A model generated the notes under the pieces. It saw nothing but the letters and a program-made list of their open reading frames with translations, was not told the origin of the DNA and made no database searches. From Thermodesulfobacteriota bacterium (GTDB lineage Bacteria > Desulfobacterota > Desulfobacteria > Desulfobacterales > C00003060), in assembly GCA_034189385.1 (NCBI GenBank), contig JAXHVD010000012.1, positions 1-64,000 on the forward strand: a stretch of DNA of 64,000 bases, read 5' to 3'. Positions 1-9,206 of this stretch are shown here, in pieces (positions within the stretch are counted from its first letter, which is position 1; each line of letters begins with the position of its first letter). The translations under genes were made by a program, and so were the position numbers.

Positions 1-334
1 TAAGACAAATCGGCTACCCCACAGAAAGGGCTTGACAGAGACTAGAACCTGGGGCAGAATAACATTATCTAACCCACCTAAAGAACTAGAAAAACCAGCC
101 TTTGTTACGTATAGCCTGCCCCTGTCTATAATTGTCAAGGAATAACGATATCCAATGGGATATCACAAGCTCTGGGAATTGCAAAGCGAGTATGGTTTGA
201 CCTGTGAGAGCTTACTGGAGCCTGGTGCAGAATTGGTGTAAGTTCTCTTCATATTGACAGAACGATCGAGACCAATAGAGGCTGGAGAAAATAGGCCTAG
301 AATTGTCGGGTTCTGGGCCTCTCTTCGGCGGCAG

Positions 335-357
335 CTGTGTGAGAATCTGTGTGAGAA
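335..357. repeat. Tandem direct repeat CTGTGTGAGAA x2, putative integrase arm-type site at the right end of an integrated element
   Basis: Exact 11-bp repeat with 12-bp period, about 130 bp upstream of the tRNA 3' fragment. Confidence 0.5.
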
Positions 358-484
358 AAACTTTCCGAAATCCGTCAAAATCTGCCATTATATCCAAAAT
401 GCGTTGAAATTGACCAAACCATAAAACTAACTATTTCAAAAGGTTGCAATGTTTTGAGGAGGTTAGGAAACTCAGGGGCCTTGT

Positions 485-529
485 CTTCGAATCCGTAGGT
501 CGCCCGTTCGAGTCGGGCCGGGCGTGCCA
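485..529 (+). mobile_element. 3' fragment of tRNA-Arg(UCG), att site of an integrative element (not a complete tRNA)
   Basis: Anticodon loop CTTCGAA, 3' stem TCCGT, T-arm GCCCG-TTCGAGT-CGGGC, acceptor 3' strand CGGGCGT-G-CCA. Upstream sequence has no D-arm and no complement to TCCGT or CGGGCGT. Confidence 0.85.
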
Positions 530-574
530 ATAAAATTAACACCTTACGGATTCCAAAACCGCCCCCCCCTCCCC

Positions 575-718
575 TTCTGCTACCAAATTGCTACCAGTTG
601 TCTCAGAATCCCCCAAAATCGCCTTTCCAACCCTGCTGACTGCCTCTTGATTTTGGGTCTGTATCAAGTGCCCAGTGATGGAATGTGCCCACCGTCATCT
701 TGTAAAAGACCCTTGGCC
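575..718 (-). pseudogene. Decayed C-terminal remnant of a tyrosine integrase
   Basis: Across two frames reads GQGSF/KMTVGTF/GHLIQTQNQEAVSRVGKAILGDSETTGSNLVAE, resembling box II GHSSIxxTxDxYGHL plus the tail. Points toward the att site and overlaps TGCTACCA x2 (578-585, 589-596). Confidence 0.5.
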
Positions 719-861
719 CGCCGATTCCTTCGACTCCTTCCGCAGTTATCCAAAAGATGTGGGCCTCTAAGAGTTCGACACTCGGGGACAAGTATGCTAT
801 AAGATGCGTGTAAGTGTTCCCGGTACTGGATTTGACCGTATAAGAACAGGAGACAAGAAAG

Positions 862-1083
862 ATGGCAGACATTGTAATCAAAGATCTCGATATGAGCGAG
901 GAACTCGACAGGAAGGCCATGGAGAAAGTGGTTGGTGGTTGGTGGTTTAGCCAGCATACCAGTATGGGGTGGTGGTCTGGCCCATTTGGAGGCGGCGGTT
1001 ATAGCAACAGTTCCACCTCCTGGGGCACCGGCTTCTGGAACCCCTGGGGTGGGGGCCCCGGTTGGTGGGGAGGGGCCATGTGA
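862..1083 (+). CDS. Double-glycine leader peptide precursor (RiPP/bacteriocin-like) with Trp/Gly-rich core
   Basis: AGGAG RBS at 848-852; leader MADIVIKDLDMSEELDRKAMEKVVGG fits ELxxxxL/MxxVxGG; 47-aa core with 9 Trp and 14 Gly. Confidence 0.8.
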   Translation: MADIVIKDLDMSEELDRKAMEKVVGGWWFSQHTSMGWWSGPFGGGGYSNSSTSWGTGFWNPWGGGPGWWGGAM

Positions 1084-1152
1084 CGCAAGATAATGCCCCC
1101 CCAACACGGAAAGAGCAGGGCCTGATGGGTTGCCGAGAAAACCCCCTTGGGC

Positions 1153-3069
1153 TCACTCGGCAGACGACCAGAGTTCAGGCCCAATTTCCCTTACCTCGTG
1201 CAAGGGAGACGGCGTATCCAGACACCGACCAGGAAAACCCTTGCCCCGCCGGCTGCACATCCGGTGGAAGACTGAGATTGCCATAACATGAAGGAGGAGG
1301 TTCATCCAATTCCTGCGATCTCCTTCAGGCCCTGAACGCCTCAAGACCTCTCTTAGGGCACTTTCAGAAAAGGGGCCCTCTCCCTTGCTCAGATACTCGG
1401 AACAGAAATCCGGAAAGACCGCCTTCAGGATCTTGTAGTTCACGCTGTCGATGATCTCCGAATCCTCTGTGTAGAGGGGCACTTTTCGGCGATGGGCCAC
1501 CTCCCTTGGCAGCCACTGCTCGGCGGCCCTTCGGATAATCTTCTTGTTCCAAAAGAGTTCTTGATGCAAAGGTTCAGGGACGCTGCACAGGAGTTCTATC
1601 AGGCGATGATCCAGAAAGGGAACCCGCGCTTCCACGCCCTGAGCAGAGGAGGTTCGGTCTTCGTGCCAGAGATTGTATATCTGAAGGGATTGACTGCTGC
1701 ACATCTGCTCAAATCCAAAAACAGACCAGTCTTCGTCAGGGGCAGACAGAAAACCGTCGGCAAAGAGCCTATACCACTCTGTGGGCAGGTGAGAGGATTC
1801 AACCCTGAAATAGAGGCGCTTGTCCTTTAGAACCGAGCAGAACTGATACCAAGTGCGCCAGGAGGCCGGTCTCATGGCTGAGTAGCCCCCGGCAAATTCG
1901 TCGCCTCCCTGTCCCAGGAGGATCACCTTTAAATCTGGCAGTAAGGTCTTAGCATACCGGTGCAGTTCGTGTTTGAGGATCCACTCAAATTGATACTGGG
2001 GCATCTCCATGGCCCACACAAAATATTCGAACGCAGCAAGATCGTAGTTGATTTGACTTACCATGCGCTCGTCGTCAAAAAAGACCGGATGGAATAACAG
2101 CCCGAATCGCTCGCACAGATCCTCGGCGCTTTTTGTGTCCCCGCTTTTGTAGATCGCCTGCTCACAGATATGGAAAGCGTGCAAACAGCCAATTTCTTCC
2201 TTGGCCATGAGCGCTACAGCAGCCGAATCGACGCCACCACTCAAGAAACAGCCCAGGGGGACATCACTCATCAATCGCTTCTTGATGCTGTCCCTAAGGA
2301 GAGAACCATAGGCCTCGACGAACTCCTGAGCAGTCTTGAGGTACGAATACTTGGGGTTGCCAATGGCATGTGCAACCGACCAGTATTCCCTTGGCTCAGA
2401 AACACTGCCACCCTCGATCTCCATGAAATGGCCTCCTGGAAGAAAGCGGACCTCCTTAAGAAAGGTGGGAAGGCCGGCCAGTGGCCTTGGATTTCGGGGG
2501 ACCAACGGGCTGGGTACAAAGGTAAGGGATGGCCAATCCAGTTCCGTGGGGCAGGCTGGGTGGACGATCAAAGACTTGAGCTCCGACCCAAAGAGGAAAA
2601 GGTCCTGTGTGTGGCAATAGTAGAGGGGCTTGATGCCAAGTCGGTCACGGGCCAGAAAGAGCTTTCTGCGCCTTTGGTCCCAGAGAGCAATGGTAAACAT
2701 TCCGTTTAGAGCAGATAGGGCCTTGGCCCCGCATTCTTCATACAGGTGGAGGACCACCTCAGAATCGGAACGGGTGCGGAAGCGGTGGTGTTGGTCTAGT
2801 TGAGACCGAAGCTCCAAGTGGTTGTAAATCTCTCCGTTGACCAGGACGCAGAGGCTGTGATCTTCGTTCCATATTGGCTGACGTCCCCCTGGCAGGTCCA
2901 CGATGGAGAGTCGACGAAAAACAAAGGAGATATCGGCAGTGTCGTAGAACGTCTCGTCGTCAGGGCCGCGCCTAGAGAGTTGCGTTGCCATGGCCTGAAG
3001 CATGGCCATGCGCCTGTCCGGAGGATCCGGCAAGGATGTCAGGTAAATGAAACCAGCGAATCCGCACAT
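1153..3069 (-). CDS. asnB: Asparagine synthetase (glutamine-hydrolysing)-like amidotransferase
   Basis: N-terminal MCG, RRGPD, RRLSIVDL, NGEIYNH, RDRLGIKPLYY, LSGGVDS, GGDEFAGGY, EARVPFLD; AGGAG RBS. Confidence 0.92.
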   Translation of the reverse strand: MCGFAGFIYLTSLPDPPDRRMAMLQAMATQLSRRGPDDETFYDTADISFVFRRLSIVDLPGGRQPIWNEDHSLCVLVNGEIYNHLELRSQLDQHHRFRTRSDSEVVLHLYEECGAKALSALNGMFTIALWDQRRRKLFLARDRLGIKPLYYCHTQDLFLFGSELKSLIVHPACPTELDWPSLTFVPSPLVPRNPRPLAGLPTFLKEVRFLPGGHFMEIEGGSVSEPREYWSVAHAIGNPKYSYLKTAQEFVEAYGSLLRDSIKKRLMSDVPLGCFLSGGVDSAAVALMAKEEIGCLHAFHICEQAIYKSGDTKSAEDLCERFGLLFHPVFFDDERMVSQINYDLAAFEYFVWAMEMPQYQFEWILKHELHRYAKTLLPDLKVILLGQGGDEFAGGYSAMRPASWRTWYQFCSVLKDKRLYFRVESSHLPTEWYRLFADGFLSAPDEDWSVFGFEQMCSSQSLQIYNLWHEDRTSSAQGVEARVPFLDHRLIELLCSVPEPLHQELFWNKKIIRRAAEQWLPREVAHRRKVPLYTEDSEIIDSVNYKILKAVFPDFCSEYLSKGEGPFSESALREVLRRSGPEGDRRNWMNLLLHVMAISVFHRMCSRRGKGFPGRCLDTPSPLHEVREIGPELWSSAE

Positions 3070-3367
3070 CGTTTCTCATCTCCTGGGATGGGACTAGGCT
3101 CCTTCGACGCATTGGATGCCGAGTAGAAGCGATGGCCCCCATCGTGAATGCTCGTTTAGAAGCAGGCGATGCCACCTTCAGAACGCGACTAAAAGGTTTG
3201 ATCTAATCTACTTTCTAGTGTATTATATATGTTAACTATCTTTGAGTCCATTGCTGGCTGTATAGCCCTCTTGTTCTGGCTTTGCTTGTATCCATTGCGA
3301 ACCGAATCTCGCTGGGGGGCCAACCGTTGAAAGCCTCTCCGGGAAGTAGGCACGGGAAGTAGGCACT

Positions 3368-3802
3368 ATGAAACATTCGGCCCCAACATCCCACAAGGAG
3401 ACTCTTAACACACGTTTAAAAGAACTCCTCAAGGAGGTCTCTCCCCTAATCGACCAGGCCTCTGAAGACCAAAAGGGGAGGCTCTTGAGCTTGCTGGAAG
3501 ATTTGCGCGGGAGGGACCGACGAGAGTATCCCAGAAAACCATGCTTAACCAGCGTAACTTATGCCACCTTGGATCGCATCTTTAAGGCTTTTATCCGGAA
3601 CATAGGCAATGGTGGTGTCTTCATCGAGACGAGTGAACCCTTGTTAAAGGAAAAAGACATTACTCTGACCTTCTCCTTCCCCAACCACGAAGAACCGCTC
3701 AAACTCGCAGGCGAAATTGTGTGGACGGTGGAAAACAAGGGAATTGGAGTAAAGTTCACAACAGCGGACTACAGCCTTGCGGCCGCCGTAAAATCCCTTT
3801 AG
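3368..3802 (+). CDS. PilZ domain protein
   Basis: RREYPR (RxxxR) and NIGNGG motifs, GEIVW...GIGVKF. Confidence 0.88.
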   Translation: MKHSAPTSHKETLNTRLKELLKEVSPLIDQASEDQKGRLLSLLEDLRGRDRREYPRKPCLTSVTYATLDRIFKAFIRNIGNGGVFIETSEPLLKEKDITLTFSFPNHEEPLKLAGEIVWTVENKGIGVKFTTADYSLAAAVKSL

Positions 3803-4044
3803 CCCCTTCCTCTGACCCTCTCCCGTGGGGCCGTCGTTTGGATCGCCCTCTCTCTTGCGGCAAAGACGTTAGCTCAAATTCGCTCAATGTGGACCTATTT
3901 TCCCATTGGTGGCGCTATAATTCCCATTCCTCTGAGGATACATTTTTATTGAAAGACGGCGTAACCATTTGAAGTTGATATTAATATGTCAATTGATCTC
4001 TCTTTGCATGGTTTTTGCATAGATAACACATTAGATTCTCTCTG

Positions 4045-4275
4045 TTGCTCTTATACCACCTTCGTCGAGGACAAGACAGATTGCTTGAAAGACTCTTCAA
4101 AATCCAACACGGTTTCAATCCCCTTCACATTTATTGCCGTTTGATGGAAAGGGGACTGGGTAAAGGTCTGTCCCTGTCAATATGCAGGTATTACGAAGTC
4201 CTCGTCTTTCGTTGGCTTGCCCGGTTCATCGCCGTTGCCATACACATTTGCAGGCTTACACGACGCATCACCTAG
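4045..4275 (+). CDS. Small hypothetical protein
   Basis: 76-aa ORF with protein-like NPLHIYCRL...ICRYYE segment; TTG start uncertain. Confidence 0.5.
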   Translation: MLLYHLRRGQDRLLERLFKIQHGFNPLHIYCRLMERGLGKGLSLSICRYYEVLVFRWLARFIAVAIHICRLTRRIT

Positions 4276-4579
4276 CCTCCGCCTGCCATTTTGCCCCGAC
4301 TTGCTGCTGGCTTGTGCTCTGGTCGCGTCAAGGGCCAAAGAAGGCATCTGAAAGGTGATGGCGTTGAGTGGAGAAGAAAGGAGGTAAACCGGCAAGGGGT
4401 GTCGTGGCCTCCTCTTTTTGTCTGTTCCTATGGCCTGTCACCCTTGTCAAGCCTCAGCCCCCCCCAACCCTAACCTTGTTTGCGCAACCGTAGACGGGCA
4501 ACCAGATCTGTTCAAATCAAGGCTACGGTGTTGGTTTTTCACAAACCCTTTTCTTTTTCCTTCCATTGCTTTTAACAGA

Positions 4580-4608
4580 TTGACTTTTCAGCTTTCTCGC
4601 TGTAGTCT
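4580..4608 (+). promoter_or_regulatory. Putative sigma70 promoter of the PilZ gene at 4649
   Basis: TTGACT-N17-TAGTCT, about 40 bp upstream of ATG. Confidence 0.4.
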
Positions 4609-4648
4609 ACAAAAAAGTGCAGGGTTGCACTAGTGGGAGTGAAATGCC

Positions 4649-5107
4649 ATGAAAAAAGTGGTCGAACAATCAGATGATGCCTCTGTTACAGCTCGATTGA
4701 AACAGGCCATGGGAAACATATCTAACCTGATCACCAATGGATCAGAAGAGCAAAAGCGTACCATATTGGAGGTCTTGGAAAACCACCGGCTGCTAGAATT
4801 GCTCGAAGATTGGCGGCACGGAGAGCGGAGAAAAACAGACAGAAAACCCTTTTCGCTCTCTGTTCAATACGCGACGGAGCATGAGATCCTCACCGATTTT
4901 CCAAGGGACATTAGCAGTGGCGGTATGTTTATTGAAACCTCTGCCTCCCTGCCGGTGGGACAGCAGATCACACTGACCTTAACCCCTCCCAATGAGGGAA
5001 AAACCATCAAGGCCGCTGCGGAAGTCGTCTGGACGGGCCCAGGGGGAGTTGGCGTGAGATTTACGGCGATGAGCAAGGAGTTGGAAAGGATGATCAAGAA
5101 GCTTTAG
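4649..5107 (+). CDS. PilZ domain protein
   Basis: RRKTDR and DISSGGMF motifs, AEVVW...GVGVRF. Confidence 0.88.
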   Translation: MKKVVEQSDDASVTARLKQAMGNISNLITNGSEEQKRTILEVLENHRLLELLEDWRHGERRKTDRKPFSLSVQYATEHEILTDFPRDISSGGMFIETSASLPVGQQITLTLTPPNEGKTIKAAAEVVWTGPGGVGVRFTAMSKELERMIKKL

Positions 5108-5451
5108 TCTGTTGGTTCTTCCGTTCTGGTCCTGTGACCATTGCAGCTTCTGCTCATAGGTGTTTCCTTTTCCCTCCCCCAGTTGGTGTCGGGCTGTTCT
5201 CTTTTTTTGTCATTCTCGCCATGAGTCTGATCGAAAGGGTTCGAGGATTCAGCGGGTCCAGCGTTTTATCCCTCTTCACAAATCGTCCTCATTGTCAGGC
5301 CCCTCTGGTCTTTCACATAGACGTGCACCTGACCAGGTACTGTTGGGGCCAACAGATTCGGACATGATCCTGCGGTACGAGCCGGGGCCTTGCCAGCTCT
5401 TTCGAAATGGAGAATCTCCATGGTCCTGTTGGTTCGTGGATGGGCACCAGA

Positions 5452-6678
5452 TTAGGCTATCCCTGAAAAATGGCTATATTGGTCGCCATCCGTATCCATG
5501 GCAAGCCCGTACAGATCTTTACCCTTAAACTGGAATTGTATATGTGAGGGGTCAATGGTGCCGTTAGCCGATGCGTTTTGACGAACGGTGAACTTGACAG
5601 TGGCCGTCCAAGATTCCGAATCGTAGTAAATGCTATCTGGGATGGATGCGATCCTCACTTCCGTAGAGGGGATAGGAAGGCCGAAATTGTAAGCCTCTCC
5701 CGGCCCAGCGCCAGAGGCCCTGCTAATCTGCCAATTGGCCCTGTTCTCTACAGACGACCTGTCCATCTCTTTGTCAAAGGCGATCGTCATAGTGAACGTC
5801 TTGGAGGCATCAGGGGCTGCAAGGTAGGCATGTAGGGAGGAAACAGGGGTTTTGGGGGGTTGGGGCCCGAAGCCCTCGGTGGAGTAGGCGACAGTGAAGT
5901 TTGGCCGGTCAGCGGTGTATATGTACCGACTCAGCGTATTGGCCAGGGCCAGATCTCTGTGCACCAGAAATGCCAGCATTTCCTGGGCTTCTCCCTTTTG
6001 GCCCTGATCGGCACGGGCATACCCTATTTCCGCGTAAGCGTCATAGAAGTCTTTGTCCAACCCTATGGCCTCTTCAAACTCTCTGATGGCCTCCTCATAA
6101 CGGCCCTCCTTGCTGTAGACAAGTCCCAGCCCGTAGGAGCCATTGGGCTTGTCAGGGGTCAAGCGCCGGACCTCATTGAATTGGGCCTGTGCCTCGCTCA
6201 AGCGGTCTGTGCTCAAATAGACCTGCCCAAGGGCAAAGTGATTGTTCGCACTGGGGTTCAGTTGCACGGCCACCTCATATTGTCTCTCCGCCTCTGCGTA
6301 TCGTCCCAGGCTGAAATAGAGGTTTCCCAGTGAGACGCGCACGTCGTCGCGCATAGGGTCGAGCCTGATCGATTCCCGGTAGGCACCGATAGCCTTCTCA
6401 GCTTCGTTCAGCTGGAGGTATGCAGTTGCCATGTAGTTTGATGCATCGACCGAATTCGCTGAAGTCGGTGACAGGGCTACGGACCTCTTGAATTCCCTGA
6501 GGGCCCCCTGATAATCTCTCTTGACCAATAGATCTATGCCAGTCCTTAAGGCCCCTTCTGCCAGACTGTCGAGCTGTTGGATTTGCCCGTAGGTAGCACT
6601 AAAAAGAGCATCAGACTGAGCCGCAGATATGGCTTCCATGTGGTGTGGGCCTGCCTTTCGATCTTTCTTCCACTTCAA
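5452..6678 (-). CDS. Tetratricopeptide repeat protein with beta-rich C-terminal domain (start may be ATG 6639)
   Basis: Several TPR repeats (LGNLYFSLGRYAEA, LGLVYSKEGRYEEA). Confidence 0.85.
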   Translation of the reverse strand: MKWKKDRKAGPHHMEAISAAQSDALFSATYGQIQQLDSLAEGALRTGIDLLVKRDYQGALREFKRSVALSPTSANSVDASNYMATAYLQLNEAEKAIGAYRESIRLDPMRDDVRVSLGNLYFSLGRYAEAERQYEVAVQLNPSANNHFALGQVYLSTDRLSEAQAQFNEVRRLTPDKPNGSYGLGLVYSKEGRYEEAIREFEEAIGLDKDFYDAYAEIGYARADQGQKGEAQEMLAFLVHRDLALANTLSRYIYTADRPNFTVAYSTEGFGPQPPKTPVSSLHAYLAAPDASKTFTMTIAFDKEMDRSSVENRANWQISRASGAGPGEAYNFGLPIPSTEVRIASIPDSIYYDSESWTATVKFTVRQNASANGTIDPSHIQFQFKGKDLYGLAMDTDGDQYSHFSGIA

Positions 6679-6844: not shown

Positions 6845-7127
6845 GCCTTTTTGGCGCCTTTAGTTGCTGTTCCAATAAGTCAGATTTCGCTGCTCCTGGC
6901 ATTGAATGGCGTCTTTCGCCTCCCTCGGAGGATGCGAACTGGGGTTGCTCACAAACTGTTAACATGGGCTATTAGGCATAACAGACGTCAATGGCCGGCA
7001 GTTTCTCGCTGGGCCTACGTTACTTCTCCCTTCACACAGGAGCCCCTGGCTCATCAGGACAAAACGGGCTTTGACTGGATATGCAATCTCTTTAAACAAG
7101 TTCGAGCCTCACGGCTTGAAAAGAGAC

Positions 7128-7378
7128 GTCTCCTTATCAACCGTTAGAAATAACAACTAAAAGTGTGCTGAGGTTTAGAAAATGGAAGAACCCTGGTTTG
7201 AACCTTTCTGATGCGATGGGAGCCTCGGGGGTAGGAAATCCGCTTCTCTTCGGCCTCCAATGCCTTAAGTAGCTGTGCGAAGATTCTGGGTTGCAATGGC
7301 TGTAGGTCTTCGTTCAGCGAATTTCCCACCCCCTCTGTTTGCACATCCCCGGGGGGGTACAAGTCTTGACAGACCTAC
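7128..7378. mobile_element. MITE-like dispersed repeat, copy 1
   Basis: Colinear similarity to 55406-55655, including the shared block CGCTTCTCTTCGGCCTCCAATGCCTT; ends CCTTATCAAC and GTCTTGACAGACCTAC. Confidence 0.7.
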
Positions 7379-7679
7379 TATTACTGGAAACGGGGCCTGC
7401 GAAACTTGAGCTCTTTACATTCCACTTGGGTTAGAGCGCAGAGAAAGGTCTGGGTTTTGGTCGTGTTTTTTGAAATCGACTGTGGGTGTTTGGCTGTAAA
7501 TGAGATGATTTTAAGTCATACACGAGAGGAACTGTAGAAGGAATCTAAGGAAAAGCTGTTTCAAGGATTGTCATTTTAGGATTTTGGTGCTATAATAAAT
7601 ACTTGTTTGAAAGAATCAGCGATCCAGTGATATTTTCTCACGCTCTGATGGCAACAGATTCAATAAAGGGAGAGGCTTT

Positions 7680-8267: not shown

Positions 8268-9206
8268 TTGCTCACCACATTTGAAAAGGGCGGCCGGAAA
8301 AGCCATGGGCGGGGTGGGACAGATCCCACGAAAGGGTTTCTTTATTCGTTGGGAGGGGTAATCCTTCTGTCCACGAACTTCGTGACCGCTAAGTATGGCT
8401 TGCAAGGATTCAATCCCGAAACATTCAGCCTTGTGTGGACATCTGCTGCAGCCATATACGCTTTTGCCATTGCCCTGGCTGGCCCTTCAAGCCGAGACCA
8501 GGTCTTTCCCGCAGGTAGTCTGAAGGCCATGTTATCATTGGGAATTGCCACTGGCGTCGGGATGCTTCTGGCGTGGCAGGGTCTTGCTCGCCTTGATCCC
8601 GCATTTGCTTCTTTCCTATGGCGATTCTTCCCTGTTATAACCATTCTTGCTGGCGTTCTTTTCCTAAAGGAGCGCTTGTCCAAACCAGAAGTGCTTTCAA
8701 TGACCATCATGCTCCTTGGCAGCCTGTGGGGCGTAGCCGACAGGTGGGAGATCGTCGGCATGGGTGCCCTTCTGACGGTTCTAGCCGGATGTGCCGGCAC
8801 TGTGCAACTGTTGATTGCCAAGTTGCAGACACATCGGGTGCACCCGAACGTGCTCGTTGCATACAGGGTCGGAATCGGGTCAGTGATCATAGCTTGTTGG
8901 ACAGTAGTCACAGGCACAGCCGATTTTTCTGTTGGATTTCGTTATTGGTGTGTCACCCTTTTGGGTGCTTTCCTGGGGCCATGTGCCAGTTTTCTCCTCA
9001 CCTTTCGTGCTTACAAGTATTGGTCCCTGTCCCAGTCCACTATCGTGCTTACGGCCCAACCATTGCTGGTTCTACCGATGACATACATGTTCCTGGGAAC
9101 CCTGCCTACGGCGAGAGAGTTGGTGGGGGGCTGCATGATTCTCACCGGAGCATTCTGGCTTGCCTTCTTGCAGGTAGCCACCAGAAAAACCAGGAGGCAG
9201 CCTTAA
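8268..9206 (+). CDS. DMT/EamA family transporter
   Basis: About 10 hydrophobic helices, FLKERL motif, two-repeat EamA architecture; start uncertain. Confidence 0.85.
   Translation: MLTTFEKGGRKSHGRGGTDPTKGFLYSLGGVILLSTNFVTAKYGLQGFNPETFSLVWTSAAAIYAFAIALAGPSSRDQVFPAGSLKAMLSLGIATGVGMLLAWQGLARLDPAFASFLWRFFPVITILAGVLFLKERLSKPEVLSMTIMLLGSLWGVADRWEIVGMGALLTVLAGCAGTVQLLIAKLQTHRVHPNVLVAYRVGIGSVIIACWTVVTGTADFSVGFRYWCVTLLGAFLGPCASFLLTFRAYKYWSLSQSTIVLTAQPLLVLPMTYMFLGTLPTARELVGGCMILTGAFWLAFLQVATRKTRRQP

Follow-up and report, generated by a model that had tools for sequence, protein, structure and literature searches.

Peptides with a double-glycine (GG) leader carry an N-terminal leader that ends in G-G/A/S and has hydrophobic residues at positions -4, -7 and -12, and the AsnB fold of the asparagine synthetases also occurs in tailoring enzymes such as the C-terminal amidotransferases of thiopeptides. 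Here we describe a locus in which a GG-leader peptide gene and an AsnB-like gene lie side by side, within the first 64 kb of contig C4 (64,000 nucleotides, hereafter the window) from the 4.13-Mb genome, in 64 contigs, of a Thermodesulfobacteriota bacterium (G000). The peptide gene (862..1083, plus strand) encodes 73 residues with a Trp/Gly-rich core and converges with a gene for a 638-residue AsnB-like protein (1153..3069, minus strand). The initial annotation had proposed the two as a new type of ribosomally synthesized, post-translationally modified peptide (RiPP) system, in which the enzyme would amidate or cyclize the peptide. Our analysis favours another account, to which we assign a rough probability of 0.7, in which an exported microcin-like peptide is produced from one of eight scattered leader-sharing genes and lies beside a separate AsnB-like unit that acts on a different substrate.

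The closest described counterparts of the peptide are the class II microcins and GG-leader bacteriocins, the former being widespread in Gram-negative bacteria according to the excerpt of PMC12219008 that covers them. Like these, the peptide is small and has a GG leader with hydrophobic residues at the three positions and a Gly-rich core; the genome holds conserved-leader paralogues with hypervariable cores, as well as a C39-peptidase ATP-binding cassette (ABC) transporter (PCAT) with intact catalytic motifs and with HlyD-type and outer-membrane partners. It differs in the length of its leader, which is 26 residues in comparison to the 15-18 residues given for enterobacterial microcins in the same excerpt, in that the window's copy adjoins neither the exporter nor a recognisable immunity gene, and in the very Trp-rich cores, the uncultured Thermodesulfobacteriota host and the sigma-54 promoters at seven of the eight genes of the family. 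The closest studied exporter of the same build, as far as the excerpt of PMC10986499 goes, is HetC of Nostoc PCC 7120, a PCAT with a cNMP domain that is thought to export a developmental signal. The PCAT described here shares with HetC-type PCATs and the NHLP/Nif11 systems (TIGR03796/TIGR03794) the order of cNMP before C39, transmembrane and ABC domains, an adjacent HlyD adaptor and scattered substrates. It differs from them in its two cNMP domains, the FHA-domain and PpiC-like proteins in its locus, the short GG leaders of its candidate substrates and the lack of NHLP or Nif11 domains.

The AsnB-like protein can be placed beside three groups of described enzymes. With asparagine synthetase B (E. 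coli AsnB, 1ct9; human ASNS, 6gq3) it shares the two domains, Cys2, the glutamine-site residues and the SGGxDS PP-loop, and it passes TIGR01536; unlike that enzyme, it has Gln387, Asn466 and His469 in place of Glu-364, Asp-400 and Arg-403, about 100 extra C-terminal residues and a patchy distribution among genomes. With AsnB-fold tailoring amidotransferases, namely TsnB9 and Amm20, the latter proposed without test as such an amidotransferase for ammosamide in the excerpt of PMC12715798, it has in common the fold, the best match among solved structures (7ylz) and a pocket not adapted to aspartate. However, TsnB9 retains the Glu of the SGE motif, and the tailoring enzymes sit within biosynthetic clusters, whereas no cluster is present here and the peptide gene is merely convergent. 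Lasso cyclases (McjC-like, NF033535) likewise contain an AsnB-type synthetase domain, but the protein scored 187 bits against NF033535, for which the cut-off is 525, its glutaminase Cys2 is intact and positions 7-9 of the peptide core are free of Asp and Glu. Neither a lasso leader peptidase gene nor a PqqD-like or RiPP recognition element gene was present among the neighbours examined (two PilZ genes and a TPR protein gene). We thus agree with the initial annotation that lasso chemistry is excluded.

The peptide belongs to a family of eight scattered genes

The peptide gene (stop codon included) encodes a 26-residue leader ending in VVGG (862-939, plus strand) and a 47-residue Trp/Gly-rich core (940-1080, plus strand). 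The end of the leader reads L(-12)DRKAM(-7)EKV(-4)VGG, with hydrophobic residues at -4, -7 and -12 before the GG, and the precursor stays within the 150 residues allowed for this class. In comparison to the orthologue on a metagenome contig (L026), the changed codons of the leader comprise seven synonymous and one non-synonymous change, whereas the first 36 codons of the core show seven of each, together with an in-frame indel. The leader is under purifying selection, and a conserved export signal joined to a fast-evolving core is the usual pattern, which fits these codon changes. Because the leader changes are mostly synonymous and seven paralogues share the leader, this open reading frame (ORF) is a genuine gene, as its precursor-like GG-leader pattern had initially suggested. 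The core of the window's peptide contains no Asp or Glu, as previously pointed out; this does not extend to the orthologue P0123, which has one Asp within its core.

No Pfam or NCBIfam model matched the peptide or its three database relatives. A word-index search with the peptide returned just three relatives, and a later profile search showed that the family is larger. The nearest of these relatives, P0123 and P0122, are encoded on contigs of 107,092 nt and 25,417 nt, respectively. ESM Atlas look-alikes reached 0.79-0.81, a range that shuffled proteins reach as well, and serve as leads only. Upstream of the gene, a putative sigma-70-type promoter (775..803, plus strand; TCGACA, 17 nt, TATAAG) was read by eye and is conserved in L026; the consensus promoter scan skipped it because the second hexamer ends in G.

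Through a peptide search followed by a leader hidden Markov model (HMM) run over all stop-to-stop frames, we identified eight genes in the genome with the leader M..I.IKDLE...ELD.KAM...GG. Their cores are unrelated: three are Trp/Gly-rich (C4, C45:46140-46364 and C7:6660-6854) and have an SSTS motif in common, and the other five begin with Cys. The seven genes outside the window start at C45:46364, C7:6854, C18:55771, C2:13804, C45:34172, C20:50345 and C1:214057, and they adjoin unrelated genes, encoding an RNase J-like protein, an Asx-tRNA synthetase, a hybrid kinase, peptidyl-prolyl isomerases, a deacetylase-like protein, CheR, a binding protein and a HAD protein. With a profile built from ten members, the leader family was recovered from 5 of the 200 other genomes examined in the order, and the leader profile matched 199 clusters among 1.84 billion proteins, 10 of them at E <= 1e-10. 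At least seven of the 27 clusters inspected have Trp/Gly cores, several with expanded GNPWGG-type repeats and differing C-termini. Six aligned Trp/Gly members have the internal SSTS motif and a Pro fixed, and Trp/Gly peptides end variously in ...GGAM, ...GGPAM, ...GGGGW, ...GWGA or ...GFWW. In the database relatives P0124, P0135 and P0136, the C-terminal part of the Trp/Gly core is enlarged by tandem GNPWGG-type repeats in two to four copies.

A sigma-54-type element, TGGCAY-N5-xTGCA, lies 70-90 nt upstream of seven of the eight leader-peptide genes (degenerate at the C2 copy), and the seven genes that carry it share a GAAAGGAGAA ribosome-binding site. The same element recurs upstream of homologues in other genomes of the order (L199, L201, L202, L205 and L206). 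Since the elements precede seven of the eight genes and recur in other genomes, and an activator gene follows that of the PCAT, the family would seem to form a sigma-54 regulon that encodes secreted peptides.

The genome encodes a single C39 exporter on another contig

PF03412 (C39) has a single match in the genome, at 137 bits on contig C45, and none in the window. The match belongs to a PCAT of 1019 residues (C45:41776-44835) with two cNMP domains, C39, ABC_membrane and ABC_tran. Around it, an export locus extends from an outer-membrane channel to a sigma-54 activator (C45:35603-46100 in G000, equal to L018:5604-16101), in the order NodT/TolC-type outer-membrane protein (OEP), 690-residue FHA-domain protein, HlyD-type adaptor, PpiC-like protein, PCAT and sigma-54 activator. 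No more than 1.4 kb separates the Trp/Gly paralogue C45:46140-46364 from the export locus; this paralogue comes directly after the activator, has a Ser/Thr kinase gene beyond it and is the only one that adjoins the PCAT; the window's peptide gene and the PCAT are on different contigs. The C39 domain keeps the Cys of DCGAAC and the His of GYHYIVV, which we take to be its catalytic residues. Because the one C39 peptidase of the genome sits on another contig, cleavage and export of the window's peptide would proceed in trans, by this PCAT, as had been anticipated when no C39 peptidase was seen in the window.

The PCAT scored 545 bits against TIGR03796 (cut-off 853) and the HlyD-type adaptor 74 bits against TIGR03794 (cut-off 156); since both scores fall below the curated cut-offs, the two are not members of these equivalog families. 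The adaptor is HlyD_3/TIGR01843-like, its 182 bits falling short of the cut-off of 209, and the PpiC-like protein reached 107 bits against TIGR04500 ('peptide maturation'), below its cut-off of 180. The outer-membrane subunit passed TIGR01845, at 368 bits against a cut-off of 210.

The AsnB-like protein has a non-canonical synthetase pocket

The AsnB-like gene is monocistronic, its product starts MCGFAG, and it is convergent with the peptide gene and divergent from a PilZ gene at 3368-3802; a promoter-like site lies at 3250-3222 (minus strand). Between the convergent stop codons there is a spacer of 69 bp (1084..1152), which confirms the arrangement and coordinates initially given; in L026, the spacer is longer and diverged. 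The window's spacer contains a weak terminator-like hairpin (1117-1094, minus strand), which is not evidence of function, and terminator-like sites in the region are no commoner than in shuffles.

The description of the protein as a complete AsnB homologue was borne out by the presence of Cys2 and the PP-loop. In Pfam it matches GATase_7 (3.5e-45) and Asn_synthase (7.9e-52), and it scored 349 bits against TIGR01536 (cut-off 267), evidently a broad model. Besides Cys2, its motifs are the PP-loop SGGVDS (277-282), Gln387 in LLGQGGDEF, and Asn466 and His469 in YNLWHEDR. The subfamily alignment shows no variation at the glutamine-site residues R53, N78, G79, E80 and D102 or at the PP-loop residues S277, G278, G279, D281 and S282. 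Gln387 aligns with the Glu of the SGEGSDE motif, which is Glu-364 in human ASNS and chain position 348 in the E. coli enzyme (phmmer to 6gq3 and 1ct9); in the same alignments, human Asp-400 (E. coli 384) is matched by Asn466 and human Arg-403 (E. coli 387) by His469. As the excerpt of PMC6748925 has it, asparagine synthetases conserve Glu-364, and human ASNS carrying E364Q shows no activity when given aspartate, ATP and ammonium; Asp-400 and Arg-403 are likewise conserved, as residues of the synthetase site. Across 32 sequences with identities as low as 41%, Gln387, Asn466 and His469 do not vary, and neither do the motifs GQG.DEF and NLWHEDR, which supports the earlier view of YNLWHEDRTS as the mark of a distinct AsnB subfamily. 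Because Gln, Asn and His replace the Glu, Asp and Arg of the aspartate site, the substrate would not be aspartate, and the protein is probably a glutamine- and ATP-dependent amidotransferase for another carboxylate. Its best match among solved structures is 7ylz (E 2.8e-46, residues 1-542), the TsnB9 hydroxyamidotransferase of a natural-product pathway.

Relatives at 83-98% identity were found solely on short metagenome contigs and in one Thermodesulfobacteriota metagenome-assembled genome (the recorded contigs of the clusters above 80% identity, P0002-P0004, are at most 5,890 bases), and the next relatives, at 47% identity or less, come from cyanobacteria, gammaproteobacteria and others. The subfamily defined by GQG.DEF and NLWHEDR is also present in Actinomycetota and is annotated everywhere as asparagine synthase. 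Four of its loci have a major facilitator superfamily transporter gene directly downstream in the same orientation, and four others have a divergent amidohydrolase gene and a convergent beta-lactamase-fold gene. Since the pocket is invariant across phyla, in genomic settings without peptides, this argues for a common small substrate and not a lineage-specific peptide. A widespread AsnB subfamily is named asparagine synthase by automatic annotation, yet lacks residues needed for activity on aspartate.

Searches of 36 further genomes of the genus recovered neither the AsnB-like gene nor the peptide gene. Among 400 other genomes of the class, none contained the AsnB subfamily at E <= 1e-100, and one of 400 gave a weak, leader-only match to the peptide. 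In public sources, the closest relatives of both genes are labelled Thermodesulfobacteriota. Five other AsnB-family loci in the genome, on C33, C12, C9 and C1:22 kb, lie on other contigs than the peptide genes or 190 kb from them.

Adjacency of the two genes is confined to close relatives

In L026, where the AsnB-like protein is 86% identical, the peptide gene is again convergent downstream of the AsnB-like gene, and a Logan contig of run X2 carries a variant copy in the same convergent arrangement. A contig of run X1 spans 510-1311 without a difference, including the 3' part of the att copy described below, the peptide gene and the 3' end of the AsnB-like gene. The adjacency was seen only where AsnB identity is at least 83%. 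In L035 (AsnB 87% identical), synteny extends for more than 6 kb along the other flank of the AsnB-like gene, with 81-82% nucleotide identity, so the conserved adjacency can be explained by vertical descent alone.

The initial annotation had named AsnB homologues without a linked peptide as evidence against the pairing, and outside these close relatives this is what we observed. Eight gammaproteobacterial or metagenomic subfamily loci with transporter or hydrolase neighbours contained neither a PCAT nor a peptide. The leader HMM, applied to small ORFs from 163 AsnB-homologue loci, found a match in L026 alone, and a generic scan for Trp/Gly or GG-leader peptides among 1240 small ORFs from 22 subfamily loci again retrieved L026 alone, with no peptide in the 21 others. 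For 11 loci with AsnB at 41-47% identity, we scanned 51 of the 90 ORFs listed, after setting aside the AsnB genes, a duplicate locus and frames that were short or nested; no peptide was found near subfamily members at 41-49% identity in the loci examined. Seen from the peptide side, no AsnB homologue lies near any of the seven other leader-sharing genes of the genome. In the five other genomes with the leader family, the best AsnB match (E 5e-65) covers the N-terminal domain only, the matches are on other contigs or megabases away, and none reaches the score of the subfamily.

A predicted complex of the AsnB-like protein (alignment A2) and the peptide (alignment A3) scored 0.01, which counts neither for nor against binding. 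In the literature searched, we found no report in which an AsnB-type enzyme is coupled to a Trp/Gly peptide with a GG leader. With convergent genes, seven paralogues that have no AsnB nearby, and subfamily loci and five leader-family genomes that lack the pairing, the claim that the enzyme modifies the peptide is not upheld; a functional link is unsupported, and the AsnB-like gene is most likely a mere neighbour.

Upstream of the peptide gene lies an att-type repeat (485..539, plus strand), whose 55 bp exactly duplicate the final 45 nt of tRNA-Arg(TCG) and the 10 nt that follow. It is 100% identical to C10:82429-82483, the full tRNA-Arg(TCG) being C10:82397-82473, and ARAGORN detected no tRNA in the window. 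The att site of the initial annotation therefore stands as a tRNA 3' copy, but the integrase remnant reported with it was not recovered: PF00589, searched in six frames at E <= 10, matched 13 places in the genome, none of them on C4:1-1000. The repeat marks the edge of an inserted element, and from the direction in which the att copy runs, both the peptide gene and the AsnB-like gene would lie outside that element, on the chromosomal flank.

Position 1 of the window coincides with the start of contig C4, where the readable sequence begins. Positions 1-121 are identical to the end of contig C6 (C6:123929-124049), an assembly overlap. Positions 338-365 are similar to what lies immediately downstream of the true tRNA-Arg on C10, and positions 6-190 have diverged copies on C20 and C22.

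Discussion

We propose a model in which the 73-residue precursor would be cut after Gly26 and exported by the PCAT at C45:41776-44835, with its neighbouring HlyD-type adaptor and NodT/TolC-type channel. The released 47-residue core would most likely act extracellularly as an unmodified class II microcin- or bacteriocin-like peptide. The AsnB-like gene would form a separate transcription unit whose product amidates some other carboxylate, and its adjacency to the peptide gene would be a chance outcome, local to the chromosome of this lineage, where the edge of a tRNA-Arg insertion site lies. In this model, cleavage and export by this particular PCAT, antibacterial activity, the absence of modification and the substrate of the AsnB-like enzyme are what we infer. 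The peptide is a further member of the microcin-like class, which it extends to uncultured relatives of sulfate reducers. One 26-residue leader in front of differing cores, some of them Trp/Gly-rich, provides specific candidate substrates for a HetC-like transporter, and the leader family with its sigma-54 promoters and nucleotide-gated exporter is a more interesting by-product of the analysis than the pair that had been proposed.

Several observations weigh against this account. The AsnB-adjacent peptide gene is the sole copy of the eight without a sigma-54 promoter (it has no -12 GC element) and, because it differs in this from the seven others, it is under different regulation. No immunity gene was identified beside the window's peptide. 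The pair is retained in at least two diverged lineages (L026 and the X2 variant), it is suggestive that two genes so rare in the class lie side by side, and the non-canonical pocket leaves room for a peptide substrate. In addition, the subfamily loci inspected for context were gammaproteobacterial or metagenomic, whereas the subfamily extends to cyanobacterial members at up to 47% identity.

Within an exported family, the function of the peptide could also be other than that of a toxin. The sigma-54 promoters on seven of the eight genes and the activator beside the PCAT, the cNMP-binding domains that the PCAT shares with HetC, the low-complexity cores with their repeat expansion and the failure to recognise an immunity-like gene beside any of the eight copies would all suit a secreted signal, or a self-associating surface or matrix peptide, switched on by a sigma-54 activator and released through the gate of a nucleotide-sensing exporter. 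We regard this as possible though rather doubtful, since a conserved leader with hypervariable cores and many paralogues is the usual picture of bacteriocins and microcins, and no receptor or sensor gene is linked to the peptides.

A different function has been considered for the AsnB-like protein, namely that of a dedicated tailoring enzyme that adenylates the C-terminus of the peptide and either amidates it, using ammonia taken from glutamine, or cyclizes the peptide head to tail, giving a two-gene RiPP processed in trans by the PCAT. We judge this improbable. The genes are convergent and hence share no transcript, and the two Trp/Gly paralogues and five more leader-sharing peptides are encoded with no AsnB nearby. 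The active-site signature is invariant from cyanobacteria to gammaproteobacteria with no peptide in the loci examined, which points to a shared non-peptide substrate, and the C-termini of the Trp/Gly peptides are unconserved and altered by repeat expansion. In favour of the tailoring role stand the 69-bp adjacency, kept in relatives with 83-86% AsnB identity, the intact Cys2 and PP-loop, a synthetase pocket without the aspartate-binding Glu, Asp and Arg, the amidation of non-amino-acid carboxylates by AsnB-fold enzymes in natural-product pathways, to which the top solved relative 7ylz belongs, and the rarity of both genes in the class; the adjacency itself can be explained by vertical inheritance, given the syntenic AsnB-side flank in L035. 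In its most specific form, the Gln/Asn/His-pocket enzyme would be a peptide C-terminal amidotransferase recruited to the Trp/Gly peptide 69 bp away and, in trans, to its two Trp/Gly paralogues, as a minimal two-gene RiPP class with the nucleotide-gated PCAT removing the leader; the odds on this are long. A new AsnB-based RiPP class would matter for natural-product discovery if true, but the evidence does not carry it, and the locus instead illustrates how little adjacency counts towards a biosynthetic pairing when it is seen among close relatives only.

That the AsnB-like protein is a housekeeping asparagine synthetase B converting aspartate to asparagine, next to an unrelated peptide, is very unlikely, despite its 349 bits against the TIGR01536 cut-off of 267 and the name its relatives bear in all public sources, since Gln replaces the Glu required for aspartate activity in human ASNS and Asn and His replace Asp-400 and Arg-403, since the absence of the gene from 36 genomes of the genus and 400 of the class (E <= 1e-100) is not a housekeeping pattern, and since the genome has five other AsnB-family loci.

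Other features of the window

Upstream of the AsnB-like gene lie two paralogous PilZ-domain genes (3368-3802 and 4649-5107), which are TIGR02266-like, below the cut-off, and conserved in the relative L035. In an Rfam search of positions 1-6000, the lone match was a sub-threshold xanthine riboswitch at 3116-3158 (20.5 bits against 36, E 0.56), which we took as chance. Between the PilZ genes, about 160 bp (4094-4256) match seven other genomes of the genus at 71-75% nucleotide identity with unmatched flanks, and may represent a small conserved gene or RNA. In the relatives of the genus, only the gene at 8268-9206 of the window is recognisable, and synteny is scrambled. A repeat of about 280-315 bp at 7096-7410 recurs on C12 (three times), C64, C2, C11, C15 and C59 with 83-91% identity, and many genomes of the genus hold weaker copies. 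A separate repeat of about 95 bp (L026:1232-1326) occurs in more than 40 places in G000.

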